From: Candidatus Marinacidobacterium sp.
GTDB taxonomy: Bacteria; Acidobacteriota; Vicinamibacteria; Marinacidobacterales; Marinacidobacteraceae
NCBI GenBank assembly: GCA_965204755.1
Contig: OZ242011.1
Coordinates: 2,784,001-2,848,000 of the forward strand
DNA: 64,000 bases
Direction of reading: 5' to 3'
Shown here: positions 34,772 through 44,947 of the stretch, one piece after another
How the letters are laid out: every line of letters begins with the position of its first letter
How positions within the stretch are numbered: the first letter of the stretch is position 1
Made by a program: the position numbers and the translations under genes
The notes under the pieces: generated by a model
Seen by the model: the letters and a program-made list of their open reading frames with translations, nothing else
Database searches by the model: none
Told to the model about the DNA's origin: nothing

Positions 34772-34963
34772 TACTTTGGATTAGCCCCTATTAATTCAAC
34801 GAGTTACGGGCCGTCGTCGTCCGGAGTTCTCGAGTCGCCGCCCGCTCACGCCTCCATTTCGGGCCGAACAGTCCGGAATGTCCGCGGAGCGCCTACATCG
34901 CCGTGGCGCGCTCCGACCGGCCGTGGTTCGGCGGCGTTCCGCCACTACAATCCGCGGTGGTTC

Positions 34964-35334
34964 GAGTCGTTCAGACGGTCGCCGGCTCCCTTCGGGGGGC
35001 GGGAGGAAAGTCCGAACTCCGCAAGGCAGTGCGCTGGGTAACGCCCAGTCCGGGCAACTGGAAGGAAAGTGCCACAGAAAACAAACCGCCTCTCCGTTCG
35101 CGGAGCGGTAAGGGTGAAAAGGTGCGGTAAGAGCGCACCGCCCGGGCAGCGATGTCCGGGGCACGGTAAACCCCGCATGGAGCAAGACCAAATAGGGAAG
35201 CGCCCGAGGGCCGCCTGTCCGATGCTTCCGGGTAGGTCGCTCGATCCGGCGGGCAACCGTCGGGCTAGATACATGACCGCCGTCCCGTTCCGGGCGACCG
35301 GTTCGGGGAACAGAATTCGGCTTACGGGCGGCTC
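34964..35334 (+). ncRNA. rnpB: RNase P RNA (bacterial type A)
   Basis: GAGGAAAGTCCGAACTCC, AGTGCCACAGAAAA, GGTAAACCCC and AACAGAATTCGGCTTA; P1 GAGTCGTTC/GGGCGGCTC. Confidence 0.97.
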
Positions 35335-35392
35335 GGACCCTCGCCGCTCTCCCGACGAGGCGCGCCGCCCGCGGCCGGGGGCCTGAGTCTCG

Positions 35393-36640: not shown

Positions 36641-37945
36641 ATGGTCGTAAGAAACCGCGTTTCTGTCGTGGCTCTCGCCCCGGCCGCCGCCGTTTTCGCG
36701 GCGCTCGTGGCGGCGGTTCCGCTGGTCGGGGCGGCGATGCTCCGCTCCTGGGACGGGCCGTTCCCCGAGGTGCCGGACGCCGCGGAAACGCCCGAGCCGA
36801 GCGAGCCGACGCCCGGTCTGTTCTCGGTTCCGGACCGCTTCATCCGGGGGGACGCGCTCTCCACCGTCCTCGGGCGGAACGGTTTTACGGGTCGCGAATC
36901 CGCGGCGGTGGCGGAGGCGCTCGACGGGATCGCGGATGTGCGCGGTTTCCGGGTCGGGCAGACGGTGTGGATGCACCGCGACCCGAGCGGCGCGCCGAGC
37001 CGGGTGGTCTTTCCGCTCGGCGACTTCCGGGAGGTCACGGTGGCTCGCAACGGGGCCGGGTGGGACGCCCGCGAAGTCACCACCGAGCCTTCGTTCCAGC
37101 GGTCGGTCGTGCGGGGGGCGGTGGAGACCAGCCTCTACGAGAGTCTGGTGGGCGCGGGCGAGTTGCCGGGGCTGGCGGTGCTGCTGGCGAGCGCGCTGGA
37201 ATACGACATCGACTTCCACCGGGACAGCCGGCGGGGCGACACCTGGTCGGTGGTGGTGGACCGGCGCTACGCGCCCGGCGGCGAGTGGAAGGGCTACGGG
37301 CCGCTCCACGCGGTGCGCTATGTGAACCGGGGGCGCGGCATCGCGGCGTTCCGCTTCGAGTCGCCCGGCGGCGAGGTCGGCTACTACGACCGGGAGGGCA
37401 ACTCGATCCGCCGGGCGTTCCTGATGAGCCCGGTGGCCTATTCGCGCATCTCCGGGGTGTTCACGCACCGGCGGCTCCACCCGGTGCTCGGGGTGTACCG
37501 GCCGCACTACGGGGTGGACTACGCGGCGCCGCACGGCTCGCCGGTGATGGCGACCGCGGACGGCGTGGTGGTGGACGCGGCCAACCGGGGGCCGAACGGG
37601 AACATGGTCACGCTGCGGCATACCGGCGGCTACATGACGCGGTATCTCCACCTTTCGCGGTTCTCCGCCGCCGCGAAGCCGGGGCGGCGGGTGAGCCAGC
37701 GCGAGGTGATCGGGTATGTGGGCTCGACCGGGCTCTCGAGCGGGCCGCACCTGGACTACCGGTTGTACCGATACGGGAAGCCGCTCGATCCGCGTTCGCA
37801 CATCCTCCCGCCGGGGCCGCCGATTCCGGAGGAGCACCTGCCGGCGTTCCACCGCGCGCGGGAAGCGCTGGAGCGGGCGCTGGACGGGGCGCCGACGCCG
37901 CTTCGCGAGCGCTCCGCGGTGGCGGCCGCCGACGGCGGCAGTTGA
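36641..37945 (+). CDS. M23 peptidoglycan endopeptidase (MepM-like)
   Basis: HYGVDYAA, YLHLS and STGLSSGPHLDY. Confidence 0.9.
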   Translation: MVVRNRVSVVALAPAAAVFAALVAAVPLVGAAMLRSWDGPFPEVPDAAETPEPSEPTPGLFSVPDRFIRGDALSTVLGRNGFTGRESAAVAEALDGIADVRGFRVGQTVWMHRDPSGAPSRVVFPLGDFREVTVARNGAGWDAREVTTEPSFQRSVVRGAVETSLYESLVGAGELPGLAVLLASALEYDIDFHRDSRRGDTWSVVVDRRYAPGGEWKGYGPLHAVRYVNRGRGIAAFRFESPGGEVGYYDREGNSIRRAFLMSPVAYSRISGVFTHRRLHPVLGVYRPHYGVDYAAPHGSPVMATADGVVVDAANRGPNGNMVTLRHTGGYMTRYLHLSRFSAAAKPGRRVSQREVIGYVGSTGLSSGPHLDYRLYRYGKPLDPRSHILPPGPPIPEEHLPAFHRAREALERALDGAPTPLRERSAVAAADGGS

Positions 37946-38029
37946 GTCGCCCCCGCCTTCGCGGCGGGTTTGGTCGGCGGGGTTCGGTCGGGGCCCGGCG
38001 CGGGGGTAACGCTTCGTTGGCGGTTCGGG

Positions 38030-38065
38030 GTCAACGCCGGTTGACGGGTGTCAACGGCGGTTGAC
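38030..38065. promoter_or_regulatory. Tandem palindromic operator-like sites GTCAAC-N4-GTTGAC
   Basis: Copies at 38030-38045 and 38050-38065, upstream of comEA. Confidence 0.5.
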
Positions 38066-38310
38066 GCCGGGGGGCGTCGGTTCGCTGCGTTGCGGGGCGG
38101 GGCCGCGGGGGTGGGGGAGTCGTTTCGATGCGATGGTTCTCGGTCTTCCGCGGGGTTTCGGGTTTCCCTTCGGCGGTCGGCGGGGCGTCGCTCGCCGGTC
38201 GGCGCGGTGGTTGCGGTCGGGAGGGGCAGCCGGGGCGAATGTCCCGGCGGCATCCGTCCCCGTCGCGGGACTTCACCACCCCAACCCGGGAACCCTCCAG
38301 GAGGAACCCC

Positions 38311-38691
38311 ATGATCCCGATGATCGCCCGCCGGGCCGCCACCCGGCTCTTCCCCGTTCGGCTCCTGCCGATCCGCTTCGTCGCGGTCGTCCTGACCGCG
38401 GCCGCGCTGCTGTTCGCGGCCCCGGTCGGCGTCGCCGCCGCGCAGCCGGACACTCCCATCGACATCAACTCCGCCAGCGCCGAGGAACTCACCGAACTGC
38501 CGCGCGTCGGCGAGGCCACCGCCGCGAAGATCGTCGCCTGGCGCGAGGAGAACGGCCCGTTCACCCAGACCCGTGAGTTGCTCAATGTCGAGGGGATCGG
38601 AGAGAAGACCTTCGAAGTCATCGAGCCCCATGTGACCGTCGGCAACTCCGGCGGCCCCCCGCCCGCGCCGGGAGGTCCCGAGGCGGGCTGA
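38311..38691 (+). CDS. comEA: ComEA helix-hairpin-helix DNA uptake protein
   Basis: Signal peptide; IDINSASAEEL..LPRVGEATA..VEGIGEK. Confidence 0.88.
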   Translation: MIPMIARRAATRLFPVRLLPIRFVAVVLTAAALLFAAPVGVAAAQPDTPIDINSASAEELTELPRVGEATAAKIVAWREENGPFTQTRELLNVEGIGEKTFEVIEPHVTVGNSGGPPPAPGGPEAG

Positions 38692-38734
38692 CCGGGGCGA
38701 CTCGGCGCAAGTCGAGCCACGGGGCGTCGGCGCG

Positions 38735-39472
38735 TTGCGGGCCTTCTCGCGGAAGGCGCCGCTCCCGGCGGAGGGCCGGCGCCGGCGCCCCGGTGAACCG
38801 GAGCGCCGGGGCCGTTCGGCGGCACCGTCGTCCCCCTCGAAGCACCTTCCGACCCGCCGGTCGGCCGCCCTGCGCGGTCGGCGCGGCGCGGCCGGTTTCA
38901 CGCTCACCGAGATGCTGGCCGCCTTCGCCCTGCTCGGCCTGCTGAGCGCGATGGCGGTCCCTCCCATCGTGGACAGTTTCCGGGCGCAGCGCGTCCGCCA
39001 CGCCGCGATGGCGCTGCGCACCCTCCTCCAGCGGACGCGCGCCGAAGCCGCCGCCCGCGCCGCCAATGTGGCGGTCGTTTTCGACCCGCCGGCCTCGGGG
39101 AATGCCCCCGCCGGAGCGGTGGTCCCCGGCGGCCCGCCCACGATCGCGGTGTACCTGGACGAGAACCACAACGGCGTCCGCCGCCGCGAGATCGCCGCCG
39201 GGGAGGAGCGCCTGCTCCGCCCGGCCTGGCGGTTCGACGAGCGGTTCCCCGGCGTGGAGTGGGGCGCCCCCTCCGAAACCGCCGGCGGCGCCCCCATCCC
39301 CGGCCTGGCGGTCGGCGTCGCGCGGATGGTTTCCTTCTCGCCGTTCGGCAGTTCCGGCAACGGCCGGATCACCGTCAGCGGCGCCGGCGTCGCCTATTCC
39401 GTCGTCATCCACGGCGGCAGTTCCCGAATCCGCCTCGAACGCCGCGCCGGAACCGTCTGGGTCCCCGCGTAA
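38735..39472 (+). CDS. Type IV minor pilin/pseudopilin (FimT/GspH-like)
   Basis: Prepilin motif AGFTLTEML followed by a hydrophobic helix; start uncertain. Confidence 0.75.
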   Translation: MRAFSRKAPLPAEGRRRRPGEPERRGRSAAPSSPSKHLPTRRSAALRGRRGAAGFTLTEMLAAFALLGLLSAMAVPPIVDSFRAQRVRHAAMALRTLLQRTRAEAAARAANVAVVFDPPASGNAPAGAVVPGGPPTIAVYLDENHNGVRRREIAAGEERLLRPAWRFDERFPGVEWGAPSETAGGAPIPGLAVGVARMVSFSPFGSSGNGRITVSGAGVAYSVVIHGGSSRIRLERRAGTVWVPA

Positions 39473-39520
39473 CCCGACCGCGACCCCTGCGCCGGTCGCG
39501 CTAGCACCCGTTCCCCCCGC

Positions 39521-39697
39521 GTGGGCGCCGCGAACCGCGCCTCCGCGGCGCCGCCTCCCCGGCCGCCGCCCCCGAAGACACCTTCAGCGCCCTGGTTCAC
39601 CGCTCGAGTGCAGAAGGTCCTCCTCGTCGTGGCGCTCCTCAACCTCCTCCTCGGCGCCGCCCGCCTCCTCGTCGGAATCGGAATCCTCCTGAAATGA
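39521..39697 (+). CDS. Small hydrophobic protein (58 aa; alternative GTG at 39608 gives 29 aa), not in the ORF track
   Basis: ..VQKVLLVVALLNLLLGAARLLVGIGILLK*; ATGA overlap with 39694. Confidence 0.45.
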   Translation: MGAANRASAAPPPRPPPPKTPSAPWFTARVQKVLLVVALLNLLLGAARLLVGIGILLK

Positions 39698-40377
39698 CCA
39701 CCCCGCCGAGGCGGAAGCCTCGAACGGGAGAGAACCGACTCGACCCGGACGACCCCCGCTCGCGACCTTCGAGCCCGGAACGGGGCGCCGGGCAATCCCT
39801 CATCGAGCACCTCGAAGAGAGACTCCGCTGCGCCGACGACGCCCGCGTACGCGCCGCCGTCCGCTCCATCGTCGAGAGCCCGATCCTCGAGGAATTCCGC
39901 GCCCGGGTCGCCGCCTACGACCGCGACCACCCGGAAGCGAGGAAGGGCGAAGGCCCGGTCGCCATCCCGCAACGAGAAATCCGCGCCCGCATCGGAGAAA
40001 TCCCCGTCGGCGTACTGACGCGCCGGGCGCGGACCGCGCTGAAATGTCCAACCGACGCGGAGTCCACTCTTTCGCCGATCGTCCGCCTCTCGGCGGAAAC
40101 CGCCCTCAAACAACTGAAGCACAGCGACCCCGGCCTCAAGAGACCGCTGACCAACGACGACTACCGCCTCCTTCCTGGGGTCATCGAGCACGGCGAGATG
40201 CTTTCCATTACCGACCACGAGTTGGCGTTCTTCCTCGAGGTGAAGGGAGAGTGGTATGCGGCTGTCGTCAAACGGACGGAAGACCACCGCGTCTATCTCA
40301 AGACCTTCCATCGCACGAAGGATCGAGACCGGCATGCGGCTCGGAGGCGCGCGGGCGAACGCAAGAGCCCGAAGTAG
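39694..40377 (+). CDS. Putative BECR/RelE-like ribonuclease resembling C-terminal toxin domains of phage MuF proteins
   Basis: LSAETALKQLKH..DYRLLPGVIEHGE..WYAAVVKRT..VYLKTFHR pattern, recognised from memory and not searched. Confidence 0.5.
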   Translation: MTTPPRRKPRTGENRLDPDDPRSRPSSPERGAGQSLIEHLEERLRCADDARVRAAVRSIVESPILEEFRARVAAYDRDHPEARKGEGPVAIPQREIRARIGEIPVGVLTRRARTALKCPTDAESTLSPIVRLSAETALKQLKHSDPGLKRPLTNDDYRLLPGVIEHGEMLSITDHELAFFLEVKGEWYAAVVKRTEDHRVYLKTFHRTKDRDRHAARRRAGERKSPK

Positions 40378-40380
40378 GGC

Positions 40381-40488
40381 GGCGCACGGTGGGGCCCGCC
40401 GTCCGGCCGAAGCCGGCATCCCCACATGGCACTCCGCTTCCGAAGAAGCGTGCTACGGCTGGCGGAAAATTACCGTGTCACGTGCGCC
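40381..40488 (-). ncRNA. Structured pseudoknotted RNA element, copy 1
   Basis: Terminal stem, two cUUCGg hairpins, 5-bp pseudoknot; TATGCT box at 40495-40500. Confidence 0.65.
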
Positions 40489-40773
40489 GGAGGAAGCATA
40501 GCACGCGGCGCGACTTGCACCGGCGAGCGCTGCGTCCGTCCGTCCCGATCCATCGAGACAGCAAAACGCGTGGAGACCGGACTCCGGCCCTCCAGCGCCA
40601 AGCGCCGTGGACCGCCGGCCCGACCGGACGGCCCCCATCCGAGCAGCAGACGGAGCCGTCATCGAACGGCGAATCTCCGGCATGACCCTCTACCCGAACC
40701 ACAAGGGAGACTCCCGGCGCAAGAAGCGACCAGTGGCGGCGGTAGGCCATTCGTGAACTGCTGCCGACAATGT

Positions 40774-40881
40774 GGCGCATGGTGGGGCCCGTACCCCGGC
40801 CGAAGCCGGCATCCCCACATAGCGCTCCGCTCCCGAAGAAGCGTGCTACGGCCTACGGAAAATCACCGTGTCACATGCGCC
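40774..40881 (-). ncRNA. Structured RNA element, copy 2
   Basis: Compensatory changes relative to copy 1; TCGACA-N17-TACCGT upstream on the minus strand. Confidence 0.65.
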
Positions 40882-40969
40882 GGGAGAACGGTAGCGCTCT
40901 CGGCGATGTCTGTCGAGCGCGGCCCGGCGGCCGAGAGGGCGAATCGGGGTTCCGCCCTCCGCAGCCGGT

Positions 40970-41077
40970 GGCGCATGGTGGGGCCCGTCGTCCGGCCGAA
41001 GCCGGCATCCCCACATGGCACTCCGCTCCCGCGGAAGCGTGCTACGGCTGACGGAGAATCACCGTGTCACATGCGCC
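40970..41077 (-). ncRNA. Structured RNA element, copy 3
   Basis: Same fold; TATGGT at 41084-41089. Confidence 0.65.
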
Positions 41078-41169
41078 GGGAGAACCATAACGCGCTCGGC
41101 GACGCTTGTTGTCGAGTGTGGCCCGGCGGCCGAATCGGGCGGAACGGGGTTTCGCCCTCCGCAGGCGGT

Positions 41170-41276
41170 GGCGCATGGTGGGGCCCGCCCCCCGGCCGAA
41201 GCCGGCATCCCCACATGTCGCTCCGCTTCCGGGGAAGCGTGCTACGGCCGGCGGAAAATTACCGTGTCCATGCGCC
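41170..41276 (-). ncRNA. Structured RNA element, copy 4
   Basis: Same fold; TACGCT at 41283-41288. Confidence 0.65.
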
Positions 41277-41375
41277 GGTGGAAGCGTAGCGCGCTCAGCG
41301 ACGCAAACCGCCGGGCGAGGCGCGGGGTTGCCGGATTTCGCAGTCGACCCTTCGCTGATCGGGGTCAAGCGAGGT

Positions 41376-41484
41376 GGCGCACGGTGGGGCCCCCAATCCA
41401 AGCAGCGCTTGGCAACCCCACATAGCGCTCAGTCCCATCGGGATCCGGCTACGGCATGGGGAATAACACCGTGTCGCGTACGCC
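41376..41484 (-). ncRNA. Structured RNA element, copy 5 (divergent)
   Basis: Hairpins replaced but still paired; pseudoknot CCCCA/TGGGG; TACGAT at 41492-41497. Confidence 0.6.
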
Positions 41485-41665
41485 GCCCGGAATCGTAGCC
41501 GCCCTTCGAGGACGGCGCGTCGCATCGGAACCGTGGCTCTCGCCGAAGACTTGGGGAGGGGCGTAGCGGGCAGGCCGGTCCCGACCTGCCGGTACTGAGC
41601 CCGGGTGAGAACTAGGCTGCCATCGGCGTGGCGCTCGACCGCCGCCCCGCGGGCTGGCCGGCCGC

Positions 41666-42124
41666 CTACTCGTCGCTGCCGCGGGTCAACTCGGCGTCGC
41701 GCACCGACAGACGCGGCCACGCCCGAATCTCCCGGAACGCGTCGCCGTCCACGGCGACGATCGGCGGGACCGCCGGGTACATCTCCTCCCCTACGAAGGC
41801 GGCCAGGGCGACGAAGGCGTCCACGCCGCGGGTGATGAGGGCGGCGGGGGCGGTGCCGCGGCGGATCGCTTCGAGCAGCACCGCCGCCGTCGTCGAAGAT
41901 CCGCGGGTGGCGGGCAGCGCCAGGACCCGGCCGGCGCCGTTCTTCCCGGCGAGCGGGTGGTGGGGGTCGGTGATGCGGCCGTTCGCCGCGTCGTAACCGC
42001 CCCAGAAACTGAGCGGTTCGTCCGAATGGAGGACCGGCCCCTCCGCTTCCCCGGCGATCACGACCCGTCCGACCAGCCGCGAAGCGGGCGGCGATTCGCC
42101 GGTCGCCCCCGTCTTCAGTCCCAC
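41666..42124 (-). CDS. Aconitase X swivel subunit (DUF126)
   Basis: GEAEG..EPLSFWGG.D..GRITD.HHPL.G..RGSST. Confidence 0.85.
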   Translation of the reverse strand: MGLKTGATGESPPASRLVGRVVIAGEAEGPVLHSDEPLSFWGGYDAANGRITDPHHPLAGKNGAGRVLALPATRGSSTTAAVLLEAIRRGTAPAALITRGVDAFVALAAFVGEEMYPAVPPIVAVDGDAFREIRAWPRLSVRDAELTRGSDE

Positions 42125-43410
42125 GGCGACGGCTCCCGAACCACGCGTCCGGCGCGCGCGGAAGCGACGCACTCGCCGAGGCTGCCGAAGGCGACTTCGG
42201 CGTCCAGCAGGCCGGGTGCGTACCACGCGTACTTCGCCGAGTTCGTCATGAGCCGGCGCGCGCCCGCCGGCAGCATCGGCGTGGCCAGGATGCAGGTGTC
42301 CACCGTCACCTGGCCGCCGAAGGCCCGCAGCGGGTCCAGCAACCCGGCGCGCTCCACCAGCGCGGCGACGCCGCGGCTGGTCGTCACGAGGAACCGGCAG
42401 CCCGGGTGGCGTTCGCCCCCCCGCGCGCGGATCTCCGCCGCCAACTTCTCGAACTCGCCGAAGGAGAAGTGGGGGCTGCCGAGCACCACGAGGTCCAACT
42501 CGCCTTCGGCGCGGCGGTTCAACTCGGCTCTCGCGGCGCGGAGTTCCGCCATACCCACCTTCCGCGCCTCCTTCGGCGGACGCCCGCCGAGCGCGTCCCG
42601 CAGCGTCGGCGCCTCCGGTGTTACGCCGGGCAGGTGGAAGAGCGCCACCGCTCCCGAAGAAGCCGCCGCCGCTCCCAGCGCCTTCAGTCGATCTTCTCCC
42701 GGCGTCCCCGGTATCCCGACGATGGCCGCCGGTTCGTCCCCCGCCCACGGGCCGAGCAGGTGCCCGAGCACGGGGTGGAAGTCGTCGGTCTCCGCGAGCG
42801 CCTCCGGAACGCCCGAGAGTTCCAGCACCCGCGTCGCGAGCCGGTTTTCTTCCAGGTGGAGTCCCACCGCGGGAGCGCGCCCGGTGATCGCGCAGCACAC
42901 ATCGAGCAGGTCGGGATAGCGCTCGGTGCGCGCGCCGAGCACCGAGTTCGCGAAGACCACGGCGTTCGACTCGCCCCAGGCGATCTGCTGCCCGAACTTC
43001 GGCGCGTGCTCGGTTTGGTACGGGGCGCAGGTCCAGGTGGGAATCGTCCCCATCGAGTCGTAGGCGCGCATCTGCCGCGCCGACTTCTCCGCCCATTCCG
43101 CCGGCACCGCCCATTCCCGCCAGTGGAACTCGTCGAGCCCGCTCACATTCAGCGTCGAGGGCACCCGGACCTTGGCGCCGAGTCCGGCGAGGCGCTCGGC
43201 GAACTCCAATCCGGCGTCGCCCACATAGATCGTGCTGTCGATGTGCGCGCTCTCGATGTCGAGCAGGGTATCGGCGCCCCGCGCCTCCGCCATCCGCGCC
43301 ACGATGCGCATCGCGAGGCGCGCCGCTTCCCCCTCCTCCCCGGCCAGCAGCGAACGGTCGCGCTCGTCGAGGCGCAAACTCCCGGCGCTCCCGGACTCCG
43401 GCCCGGTCAT
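42115..43410 (-). CDS. Aconitase X catalytic subunit (DUF521)
   Basis: AHIDS, TWTCAPY, AWGESNAVVFANSVLGART, LGSPHFS, DTC and TNSAKY. Confidence 0.88.
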   Translation of the reverse strand: MTGPESGSAGSLRLDERDRSLLAGEEGEAARLAMRIVARMAEARGADTLLDIESAHIDSTIYVGDAGLEFAERLAGLGAKVRVPSTLNVSGLDEFHWREWAVPAEWAEKSARQMRAYDSMGTIPTWTCAPYQTEHAPKFGQQIAWGESNAVVFANSVLGARTERYPDLLDVCCAITGRAPAVGLHLEENRLATRVLELSGVPEALAETDDFHPVLGHLLGPWAGDEPAAIVGIPGTPGEDRLKALGAAAASSGAVALFHLPGVTPEAPTLRDALGGRPPKEARKVGMAELRAARAELNRRAEGELDLVVLGSPHFSFGEFEKLAAEIRARGGERHPGCRFLVTTSRGVAALVERAGLLDPLRAFGGQVTVDTCILATPMLPAGARRLMTNSAKYAWYAPGLLDAEVAFGSLGECVASARAGRVVREPSPWD

Positions 43411-43477
43411 CGGCCTTCGTCAGCCGCTTCCGCCCGAACCCGCGCTCCGCCCGCGGCGCCGCTCCGCGCCCCGGCCG

Positions 43478-44947
43478 TCAGCGGCCGTTCTTCGAGTCGG
43501 CGACGGCGCGCTTCCAGACGAACCGGTTGATCGCGATGCAGAAGAGGATGAGCAGGCCCGCCTGGAACAGCACCGCCCCGATGCTGAACTCGCCGAGCGG
43601 ATCCCACCACCGGCTGCCGGCGGTCGTAACCGACTGCCACAGCCACCACCCGAGGAGCGCGGTGAACTCGATCGGCACCACCCAGGTGATGATCCAGTCG
43701 AACCACTTGCCGACGCGCAGGCGCTGTTCGGAACCGTTGAAGTGTTCTTCCCGGAACTTCCGGGCGCCGCGGTGGATCACCGTGATCGCCACGAAGAGAC
43801 CGGAGACCAGCAGCGCCACTCCCCAGGCCCAGTCCTGGTTGCGGAAGAAGCCGAGCGACCACGCGGAGGGAAGCCCGAAGACGAACGCCACCGAAGCCAC
43901 CATGGGCACCGATCGCCGGCGGGAGACGCCGAGGTCCATGACCATCCGGTTCGCCAGTTCCAACTGGGTGATGAGCGAACTGATCGCCGCGCAGGAAAGG
44001 GTGAGGAAGAACAGCGGCAGGAAGACCGCGCTGCCCGGGATCTGCTCGAACAGCGGCGGCAGCCAGAGGAAGGTCAATCCCTCGTTGCTCTGCGAGAACG
44101 CCGCGGCGCGGTCGGCGTCGGAAGCGCTGAGCGCGAAGACCGTGCAGAGCACCGCCACCCCGGCGAGGAGCGAAGCGAAGTTGTTGGCGAACGCCGCGGT
44201 GATCCCGGTGCGCACGAAACCCTGTCCCCTCGCGACATAGGCCCCGAGCACGGTCACGAGACCCCAGCCGGCGCCGGTGCTCCACGCCGTCTGCGTGAGC
44301 GCCGCCAGCCAGATCCGGTAGTCGCCCAGCCGCTCCCAGTCGGGAACGAACAGGAAGCGGAGCCCCTCCGCCGCGCCCGGCAGCCGGACCGCGTTCACCG
44401 CGGCGATCACCAGCAGGACGAAGAGCGTGGGTATGAGGTACCGGTTGACCCGCTCGATACCCCCGCGCACCCCGCGCCAGATGATGCCGCTGGCGATGAG
44501 CAGCGCCAGCGCGTGGAACACCACCGGCTGCACCGGGTCGGAAGTGAAGTCGTCCCAGAACGCCTGGGCGTTCTGCGTGTCGAGCGACCCCAGCAGGGTG
44601 CTGACCAGGTACTTGAGGCACCAGCCGGTCACCACGCTGTAGTAGAAGGTGATGATCGTGGTAACCAGGCCGATGAACAGCCCCATCCAGTTCAGTCCGC
44701 CGGTCGTGGCCACGCCGACCGCCGCCGACGGCCCGCGCCGCGAACTCTTCCCCAGCGCGAACTCCGCGAGGAGCAGGGGTATCGCCCAGAGGAACAGGAA
44801 CAGCAGCCACGGGATCAGGAACTCGCCGCCGCCGTTCTGCGCCGCGATGCGGGGGAAACGCCAGATGTTTCCCGTGCCCACCGCCATGCCGACGGTGGCG
44901 AAGAGGACGCCGACCCGCGAACTGAACCGTTCCGTGGTCGGGGCCAT
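43478..44947 (-). CDS. Sodium:neurotransmitter symporter (NSS) amino-acid transporter
   Basis: GMAVGTGNIWRFP..NGGG.FL motif; many TM helices. Confidence 0.9.
   Translation of the reverse strand: MAPTTERFSSRVGVLFATVGMAVGTGNIWRFPRIAAQNGGGEFLIPWLLFLFLWAIPLLLAEFALGKSSRRGPSAAVGVATTGGLNWMGLFIGLVTTIITFYYSVVTGWCLKYLVSTLLGSLDTQNAQAFWDDFTSDPVQPVVFHALALLIASGIIWRGVRGGIERVNRYLIPTLFVLLVIAAVNAVRLPGAAEGLRFLFVPDWERLGDYRIWLAALTQTAWSTGAGWGLVTVLGAYVARGQGFVRTGITAAFANNFASLLAGVAVLCTVFALSASDADRAAAFSQSNEGLTFLWLPPLFEQIPGSAVFLPLFFLTLSCAAISSLITQLELANRMVMDLGVSRRRSVPMVASVAFVFGLPSAWSLGFFRNQDWAWGVALLVSGLFVAITVIHRGARKFREEHFNGSEQRLRVGKWFDWIITWVVPIEFTALLGWWLWQSVTTAGSRWWDPLGEFSIGAVLFQAGLLILFCIAINRFVWKRAVADSKNGR

Follow-up and report, generated by a model that had tools for sequence, protein, structure and literature searches.

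A structured RNA with candidate promoters of its own, convergent with a predicted RNase gene in Candidatus Marinacidobacterium and with muF genes of Mu-like phages

A 64,000-nucleotide (nt) stretch of contig OZ242011.1 of Candidatus Marinacidobacterium sp. (assembly GCA_965204755.1, positions 2,784,001 to 2,848,000; hereafter the window, numbered from its first letter) carries a plus-strand open reading frame (ORF) for a protein of 227 amino acids (aa), and a 1.3-kb stretch without any credible ORF separates it from the minus-strand genes for aconitase X (AcnX; 41666-43410). The ORF-free stretch holds five direct copies of one structured element of about 111 nt each, located between positions 40378 and 41484 at spacings of 393, 196, 200 and 207 nt (Table 1). 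Copy-to-copy likeness of the 111-nt repeat units is 73-91%, and the spacers are not conserved. As an initial annotation of the locus had claimed, the copies lie on the minus strand and converge on the 227-aa ORF, a predicted ribonuclease (RNase) gene; we present evidence that the element is a structured RNA, that its copies are very probably separate genes, and that its relatives occupy the same convergent position behind the muF genes of Mu-like phages. Copy 5 is the most divergent of the five, and in our alignments its nearest kin come from a second RNA site in this genome. A relic copy between copies 1 and 2, where the spacing of 393 nt equals two units, was considered and rejected (best match 5.6 bits, E 0.19). 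Assembled contigs of four runs over 39600-41700 consisted of short fragments only, which break at the repeats.

The fold was modelled on alignments of 13 copies from this genome, then 51 copies from seven genomes and then 98 copies, of which the 87 distinct sequences were used for pair statistics. The model is a four-way junction closed by P1, an 8-base-pair (bp) stem. P2 is an invariant 6-bp stem (GUGGGG/CCCCAC) bearing an inner hairpin, P2b; P3 has 2 + 6 bp and a cap that is mostly a YNCG tetraloop; and P4 is a 4-bp hairpin (ACGG/CCGU) with a 14-nt loop, five nucleotides of which pair with five nucleotides of the P2 internal loop to form a pseudoknot. Across the distinct sequences 96.4% of the paired cells can pair, against 37-54% in slid registers, compensatory changes on both sides were found at 19 of the 31 nested pairs, and on each of five measures none of 500 shuffles matched the observed values. 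The 13-copy and 51-copy sets agree with this result except for the measure of further pair types, which shuffles equalled in the 13-copy set. Of 435 pseudoknot cells 429 are paired, and at least 14 different complementary 5-mer pairs occur there. P2 and P4 are nearly invariant, with one compensatory double change each, so that their support is mainly conservation. These comparative data show a conserved RNA fold on the minus strand. In a sister genome, G001, we also observed RNA variants that are without P2b and keep the pseudoknot (L052:3026-3122, L053:2706-2802, L054:3095-3191, L055:2842-2940 and L046:3447-3558); four of these five are short (97-99 nt), with apparently decayed ends of nuclease genes downstream.

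The choice of strand rests on several lines of evidence. RNAalifold gave a consensus energy of -43.0 kcal/mol for the minus strand versus -32.9 kcal/mol for the plus strand, and 11 of the 14 broken cells of the plus-strand fold are C.A or A.C appositions which become G.U pairs on the minus strand. Among the 87 distinct copies there are 96 G.U versus 27 C.A cells, a count biased toward the minus strand since the alignment was fitted to the minus-strand model. Together with promoters found on the minus side only (see below), the consensus energy, the conversion of C.A to G.U and the excess of G.U argue for the minus strand as the RNA strand. The plus-strand CGAA loops, which had been read as UUCG loops of the minus strand, are indeed such loops in P2b of copies 1-4 and in P3 of copies 1-2. 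The stem TGGCAC/GTGCTA, which had been cited as an argument for the plus strand, fails in most other copies on either strand and thus loses its force.

Each copy is preceded by a -10-like hexamer. All five hexamers listed in the initial annotation are present on the minus strand, where they precede the G that opens P1 by 6 nt in copies 1-4 and by 7 nt in copy 5, and the 5' ends assigned by the covariance model (the upper coordinates of the RNA rows in Table 1) are exactly the transcription starts that it had expected. In this genome of 71.7% guanine plus cytosine (G+C) the background rate of TANNNT is 5.3e-4 per position per strand. Across the 51 copies, from seven genomes of one family, TANNNT occurs at -13/-12 from the first G of P1 in 45, while at the mirror position on the opposite strand it occurs in none, and in at least 43 the second base before the hexamer is a G. 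The 6-7 nucleotides between hexamer and stem vary freely while the T, A and T of the hexamer stay. It should be noted that the copies are related by duplication and hence are not independent trials; nevertheless, given the low background rate and the retention of T, A and T amid freely varying neighbours, the hexamers exceed chance. The six copies without a hexamer include four of the five lowest-scoring model matches. Sequence comparison shows a single promoter-like site for each copy, at a constant distance from P1. A -35-like element at a spacing of 16-18 nt was found in the window for copy 2 alone, where the previously noted TCGACA lies on the minus strand 17 nt upstream of the hexamer; copies 3 and 4 share TCGACA at about 20 nt, which is too far. 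Overall such an element was present in 4 of the 51 host copies.

The promoter assignment gains its decisive support from phage homologues of the RNA, from hosts of lower G+C, which carry canonical promoter pairs at the same distance from P1, such as TTGAAA-17-TATAAT, TTGACT-17-TAGAAT, TTGACT-18-TAAAAT and TTGATC-18-TACAAT. By a strict rule, 25 of 39 distinct viral upstream regions have TANNNT and 15 of these also have a -35, with more recognisable by eye; most of the remainder combine TTGAC(A/T/G) with a weaker -10. Several phage loci show a hairpin followed by a T-run, a typical terminator arrangement, directly after the RNA 3' end. The view that these are individually promoted units and not a precursor like that of clustered regularly interspaced short palindromic repeats (CRISPR) has therefore stood up, on the strength of a hexamer for each copy, the -35/-10 pairs of the phages, 111-nt units in place of identical repeats of about 24-48 nt, non-conserved spacers, and the lack of any cas-like gene among the neighbours scanned. 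We regard it as very probable that the RNA copies are separate minus-strand genes. In some viral loci, among them L087, L076, L077, L088 and L102, the Lys-rich tail of the MuF C-domain (...RRLLKKGKK) is, on the opposite strand, a T-rich run right after P1; in loci such as L087 the overlapping gene ends may form the terminator of the RNA.

The element appears to be a structured RNA family that is absent from Rfam and undescribed. A search of window positions 38000-44000 against Rfam release 15 at E up to 1 returned no match to the element, the sole match in the whole window at the gathering score was RNase P RNA, away from the array, and ten phage loci carrying the RNA gave no Rfam match. ARAGORN found no transfer RNA (tRNA) or transfer-messenger RNA gene in the window, in which Rfam likewise matched no tRNA. 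The four-arm layout is only loosely cloverleaf-like; a tRNA-like 3' CCA end was considered and rejected, as the 3' tail of the RNA is not conserved.

The protein on which the RNA copies converge has few relatives in two large protein collections, one search giving 28 clusters and the other 63 representatives. In the 28-cluster search none carried a source name or a Pfam domain and all came from sequencing-run and metagenome assemblies. When 61 relatives were scanned, weak matches to PBECR3 were found in 23 (E up to 0.1, best 2.6e-4), to Phage_Mu_F in four and to PBECR2 in two, and the ESM Atlas neighbours of the 227-aa protein bear MuF_C, PBECR3 or PBECR2. The window protein itself has no Phage_Mu_F domain, and the two muF genes of this genome lie elsewhere. 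The AlphaFold model (predicted local distance difference test score 85) places a helix at residues 134-144 and strands at 168-173, 176-183, 186-194 and 200-208. In a VIA-align comparison residues 127-219 matched toxins of the BECR RNase fold best, at Z 4-6.3, among them BrnT (Z 6.3), a Salmonella toxin (6.2), two CdiA-CT toxins (5.4 and 5.2), colicin D (4.9) and RelE (4.6), and no ToxN-type chain was among the matches listed. Foldseek found nothing in the PDB at E up to 0.001, its only hint being BrnT (probability 0.95 over 45 columns), and a sequence profile found nothing meaningful among PDB sequences.

The first helix carries the conserved motif K139-Q140-x-x-H143, and K193-x-T195 and T/S204 are conserved as well. 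Of 61 family members 54 retain H143 and 56 retain T/S204; among 34 phage partners each of these two positions is retained in 33. This pattern matches the PBECR active site of a His in a helix and a C-terminal Thr/Ser given in the section on these domains by Iyer et al. (2017; PMC5512222), as well as the Lys-His arrangement noted for BECR domains in the relevant part of a classification preprint (10.64898/2026.08.28.747851). The 227-aa protein is thus predicted to be a putative RNase of the BECR fold (MuF_C/PBECR), and a predicted toxin. A second subfamily of nuclease paralogues, with the signature P-I-K-Q-H-Y and with E in place of K193, was also noticed (L012:1375-2070, L047:986-2494, L015:1425-2057, L062:4002-4799 and L065:4028-5056); its members often flank an RNA gene at its promoter end, or converge with it across a larger gap.

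This genome carries 13 RNA copies at five sites. At three of these sites, which hold 10 of the 13 copies, a nuclease paralogue converges on the RNA, and 0-15 nt separate its stop codon from the closest RNA 3' end. A survey of 101 related genomes detected the RNA in six of 27 others of the family and in none of 74 genomes of sixteen other families, so that the seven genomes with the RNA all belong to one family; in one sister genome the copies number 32 and form arrays of at most six. A single-protein search of genome contigs with the nuclease yielded one distant, uninformative locus. At L013:2003-2331 (C1:1990502-1990830 of this genome) a pair of RNA copies is convergent with an ORF of 286 aa that is unlike the nuclease; it matches no Pfam family and may be a different partner of the RNA.

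The distribution outside this family was addressed by two surveys of IMG/VR, one starting from the RNA and one from the protein. A pattern scan for the RNA returned 51 stretches, 47 of which have a covariance-model match of 36-98 bits. A convergent PBECR-type ORF is present in 43 of these 47 viral loci, two are cut off, and two have no such ORF within 2 kb. The phage partners measure about 390-450 aa, and all four that were tested have an N-terminal Phage_Mu_F domain; the gene order is portal, muF, the RNA on the opposite strand, a gpG-like gene (phrog_26) and a protease. The promoter of the RNA overlaps the start of the next phage gene, and in many loci its 3' end overlaps the last codons of the partner (-1 to -8 nt). 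Three loci were checked for space, and in L084 and L093 the gap between muF and the gpG-like gene is filled by the RNA, with no room for a protein immunity gene. In the analysis of MuF toxin genes by Jamet et al. (2017; PMC5576092) the relevant passage gives a small downstream ORF after 89.4% of them.

In the protein-first survey an alignment of ten phage C-domains found 208 relatives, of which the best 80 were kept. Of these 80 loci 71 contain the RNA, in every case immediately behind the protein match and on the opposite strand. Of the nine others, two stop at the end of the gene and seven continue into downstream DNA; six of those seven were searched again without filters and again gave no RNA, and in three that were inspected the next large gene begins within about 20-125 nt. 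The catalytic signature K-Q-H...K...S is kept in 71 of 71 loci with the RNA, and in all seven RNA-less loci with downstream DNA H143 is replaced by Q and K139 by E, A or D, and the C-terminal K-T-S is missing. This pattern makes a near-obligate convergent partnership of the RNA with a catalytically intact MuF_C/PBECR domain highly probable. The comparison of loci points to a phage origin of the RNA family and to domestication of a solo version in this bacterium, since the neighbours scanned in the window are housekeeping genes, with no phage gene near the nuclease gene among them, and the two muF genes of the genome are located elsewhere. Searches with blastn of two phage versions of the RNA against collections of isolated-phage and E. 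coli genomes gave no match. In the isolated phages B23 (L120:3757-4031) and POA1180 (L121:3697-4006) the 270-310 bp that separate gene F from the protease gene bear no annotation and do not match the RNA model; a different element might lie there.

The explanation that we consider best, and hold with as much reserve as confidence, is that the copies are separately promoted, phage-derived RNA genes that are the partner and a candidate inhibitor of the RNase domain. The family would have arisen in Mu-like phages, with one copy behind muF on the opposite strand, in the slot usually taken by an immunity gene; in the family of this bacterium the RNase domain would then have become a free-standing gene of 227 aa and the RNA gene would have multiplied into arrays. 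A promoter of sigma-70 type (-10 or extended -10) in front of each copy would start transcription at the first G of the closing stem. In the mechanism that we find most likely, the RNA would be made constitutively from this promoter and would act as a decoy or pseudo-substrate which occupies the RNase domain and silences it in the encoding cell, a function akin to that of type III antitoxins. That the RNA is an inhibitor, be it an immunity factor or an antitoxin, seems plausible to us and just short of probable, because the RNA takes the place that immunity genes have at polymorphic-toxin loci, is served by a promoter of its own that faces against the late operon, vanishes where the active site decays, and has multiplied into arrays in the setting where the toxin gene is solitary. 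The usual targets of characterised colicin-like BECR toxins are tRNAs, according to the part of the preprint that deals with them (10.64898/2026.08.28.747851), so a compact multi-arm RNA could serve as a decoy. In its boldest form, which we offer tentatively, the proposal is that no earlier RNA immunity factor exists for a MuF-borne polymorphic toxin and that this is the first: a compact four-way-junction RNA with a pseudoknot free to vary in sequence, expressed in the lysogen from a promoter of its own and plugging the active site of a BECR RNase as a substrate mimic. The system would be widespread in Mu-like phages and domesticated in one bacterial family as a solitary toxin gene with up to six separately promoted antidote genes per array, a new class of RNA-protein toxin-antitoxin pair unrelated to ToxIN in fold and layout.

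A number of observations weigh against this explanation. The starts, the ends and the expression of the RNA copies are all read from the sequence, and the RNase activity and toxicity of the 227-aa protein are predictions. That protein has no Pfam hit (E up to 0.01) and no NCBIfam hit, and the list of fold matches is consistent yet middling (best Z 6.3, with only four chains at Z of at least 5). Folding energies of single copies barely beat those of shuffles on either strand (z -0.8 to -3.3) and do not separate the strands. A scan for the sigma-70 consensus that needs a good -35 found no promoter-like site in 40200-41700. The window copies have no T-run terminator, and a convincing hairpin follows copy 3 alone; without clear terminators transcription may read through from one copy into the next. 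No RNA was detected beside three other nuclease paralogues of this genome (L014-L016; all E >0.6), and in the chromosomes some RNA copies have no detectable partner within the DNA examined (L013, L046, L048, L051, L060 and L061). The same holds for the viral loci L072 (1991-2099) and L117, which bears two copies (1991-2098 and 2176-2285), where RNAs of 76-88 bits have no PBECR-type ORF within 2 kb. The covariance model found no RNA in the isolated phages B23, POA1180 and MP38, whose MuF proteins match the phage MuF query. The seven loci that lack both RNA and His represent about three signatures and so few independent losses, and the correlation with catalytic residues would also fit an RNA that is the substrate or a cofactor of the enzyme.

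This last point leads to the main rival, in which the RNA serves the RNase domain as a substrate, a cofactor or a partner packaged with it, for instance by being cut or carried by it, or by being loaded into the head with it and injected as a ribonucleoprotein. Such a partner would also explain the tight linkage and the loss of the RNA alongside the catalytic residues, and MuF proteins are thought to be virion components that are injected with the DNA. An RNA-binding role has been proposed for inactive MuF_C in the discussion of these domains by Iyer et al. (PMC5512222). We nevertheless find this rival unlikely: outside prophages the module survives as a lone gene of 227 aa accompanied by RNA arrays among housekeeping genes, where packaging into virions is irrelevant, and the constitutive-looking promoter of the RNA opposes the late operon, which suits expression in the lysogen better than co-expression with the head genes. 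The geometry of the locus suggests another possibility, that the RNA gene is a cis-antisense or transcription-interference device (type I-like or cis-antisense) through which convergent transcription silences the nuclease or muF. The RNA 3' end abuts or overlaps the last codons of the partner, with a gap of 0 in the window and of -1 to -8 in many phage loci, and the window copies are without clear terminators. A device of this kind needs no conserved four-way junction and no pseudoknot with compensatory changes, copies 2-5 of the array are 400-1100 nt from the gene, and in several phage loci a hairpin with T-run stands between the two genes, so that we judge it improbable.

Lower still we would rank the idea that the RNA is an independent small RNA of the phage 'moron' kind, with targets in the host, and that the muF junction merely tolerates insertions. 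Its own promoter and terminator inside a late operon are as in morons, and two viral loci and several chromosomal copies lack a nuclease neighbour; set against these are its presence in 71 of the 80 protein-selected loci, its absence exactly where the active site is lost, and the fact that it travels with the solo nuclease gene outside prophages, which together leave this idea very improbable. Finally, the element could act on the plus strand, as a 3' untranslated region or processed read-through of the nuclease messenger RNA (a CRISPR-like or ToxI-like precursor), given that it lies downstream of the nuclease gene on the same DNA and that single-copy folding energies are alike on both strands. 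We give this almost no credence, in view of the C.A mismatches which turn into G.U on the minus strand, the promoters on the minus side only (45 of 51 against 0 of 51, in addition to canonical -35/-10 pairs in phages), and the terminators of phage loci which follow the minus-strand 3' end.

If the RNA inhibits the RNase, its closest functional analogue is the type III toxin-antitoxin pair. In systems of the ToxIN type an endoribonuclease toxin is neutralised by an adjacent pseudoknotted RNA that occurs in tandem copies. As in ToxIN, CptIN and TenpIN, a structured pseudoknotted RNA is found here in several tandem copies beside the gene of a putative endoribonuclease, with a link to phages, and neutralisation would be the shared function. 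The present system is not a member of that family: the fold predicted for the toxin is BECR, with no ToxN-type chain among the matches listed, a unit of the RNA measures about 111 nt and forms a four-way junction, as against a repeat of about 36 nt, each unit has one promoter-like site and lies downstream of and convergent with the toxin gene, whereas the type III antitoxin is upstream on the same strand behind a terminator, and there is no sign of processing of the units by the toxin. Qrr and PrrF are near-identical small-RNA genes that stand side by side with promoters of their own and encode Hfq-type base-pairing regulators with simple hairpins. The window array resembles them in having side-by-side small-RNA genes with one candidate promoter each, and differs in its conserved multi-helix fold and its protein-gene partner.

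On the protein side, the phage relatives are MuF proteins with a C-terminal domain of toxin type, and the RNA gene lies directly after the toxin gene where immunity genes sit in the MuF polymorphic toxins as these are outlined by Jamet et al. (PMC5576092); unlike in that outline, the slot is taken here by an RNA gene of opposite orientation instead of a small ORF. The window protein stands alone outside any prophage and, being without a MuF domain, is not itself a MuF polymorphic toxin. It is predicted to belong to the MuF_C/PBECR clade: the modelled helix followed by four strands, the Lys and then His in the helix and the Thr/Ser in the last strand agree with the accounts of these RNases in the pertinent sections of Iyer et al. 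(PMC5512222) and the preprint (10.64898/2026.08.28.747851), and relatives of the protein bear the PBECR3 and MuF_C Pfam labels. A partner RNA is not mentioned in those sections of either source. The accessible text of the literature on PBECR, immunity to MuF toxins, RNAs of Mu-like prophages and RNA antitoxins likewise describes no such RNA partner, and its supplements may bear on the point. An RNA that neutralises a protein toxin is of a known kind; the RNA family which would carry that role here appears undescribed.

Should the RNA prove to be the antidote, BECR/MuF toxins would gain an RNA-based immunity that is invisible to ORF-based surveys, which would explain why some MuF toxin genes have no immunity ORF, and there would be a second class of RNA antitoxin, structurally unrelated to type III. 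Even without that role this is an uncatalogued and well-supported structured RNA family with a defined protein partner and a pseudoknot rich in compensation. For annotation, the gap behind muF in Mu-like prophages would hold a gene on the opposite strand.

Table 1. Features of the RNA array and the convergent predicted RNase gene (window coordinates)
Feature	Position	Strand	Basis or remark
227-aa predicted RNase gene	39694..40377	+	ORF; N-terminal helical region ~28-100, BECR-fold domain ~125-220
RNA copy 1, 111 nt	40378..40488	-	covariance model R1, 125.4 bits; gap 0 nt to nuclease stop codon
-10-like hexamer TATGCT of copy 1, TGC before it	40495..40500	-	sequence
RNA copy 2, 111 nt	40771..40881	-	covariance model R1, 123.8 bits
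-10-like hexamer TACCGT of copy 2	40888..40893	-	sequence
-35-like TCGACA of copy 2, 17 nt upstream of its hexamer	40911..40916	-	sequence
Stable hairpin after copy 3	within 40907-40974	-	-37.1 kcal/mol, z -2.8
RNA copy 3, 111 nt	40967..41077	-	covariance model R1, 120.6 bits
-10-like hexamer TATGGT of copy 3	41084..41089	-	sequence
RNA copy 4, 110 nt	41167..41276	-	covariance model R1, 118.0 bits
-10-like hexamer TACGCT of copy 4	41283..41288	-	sequence
RNA copy 5, 112 nt	41373..41484	-	covariance model R1, 103.9 bits
-10-like hexamer TACGAT of copy 5	41492..41497	-	sequence

The surroundings of the array comprise, directly beyond it, the aconitase X pair, with the large subunit at 42115-43410 and the swivel-domain small subunit at about 41666-42130, both on the minus strand. 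Upstream of the nuclease gene lie genes for an M23 peptidase with a Csd3-like domain (36641-37945, plus strand) and for a GspH-like minor pseudopilin with a prepilin methylation motif (38735-39472, plus strand). The RNase P RNA of the window is of bacterial class A and is found at 34963-35339 on the plus strand (301 bits).

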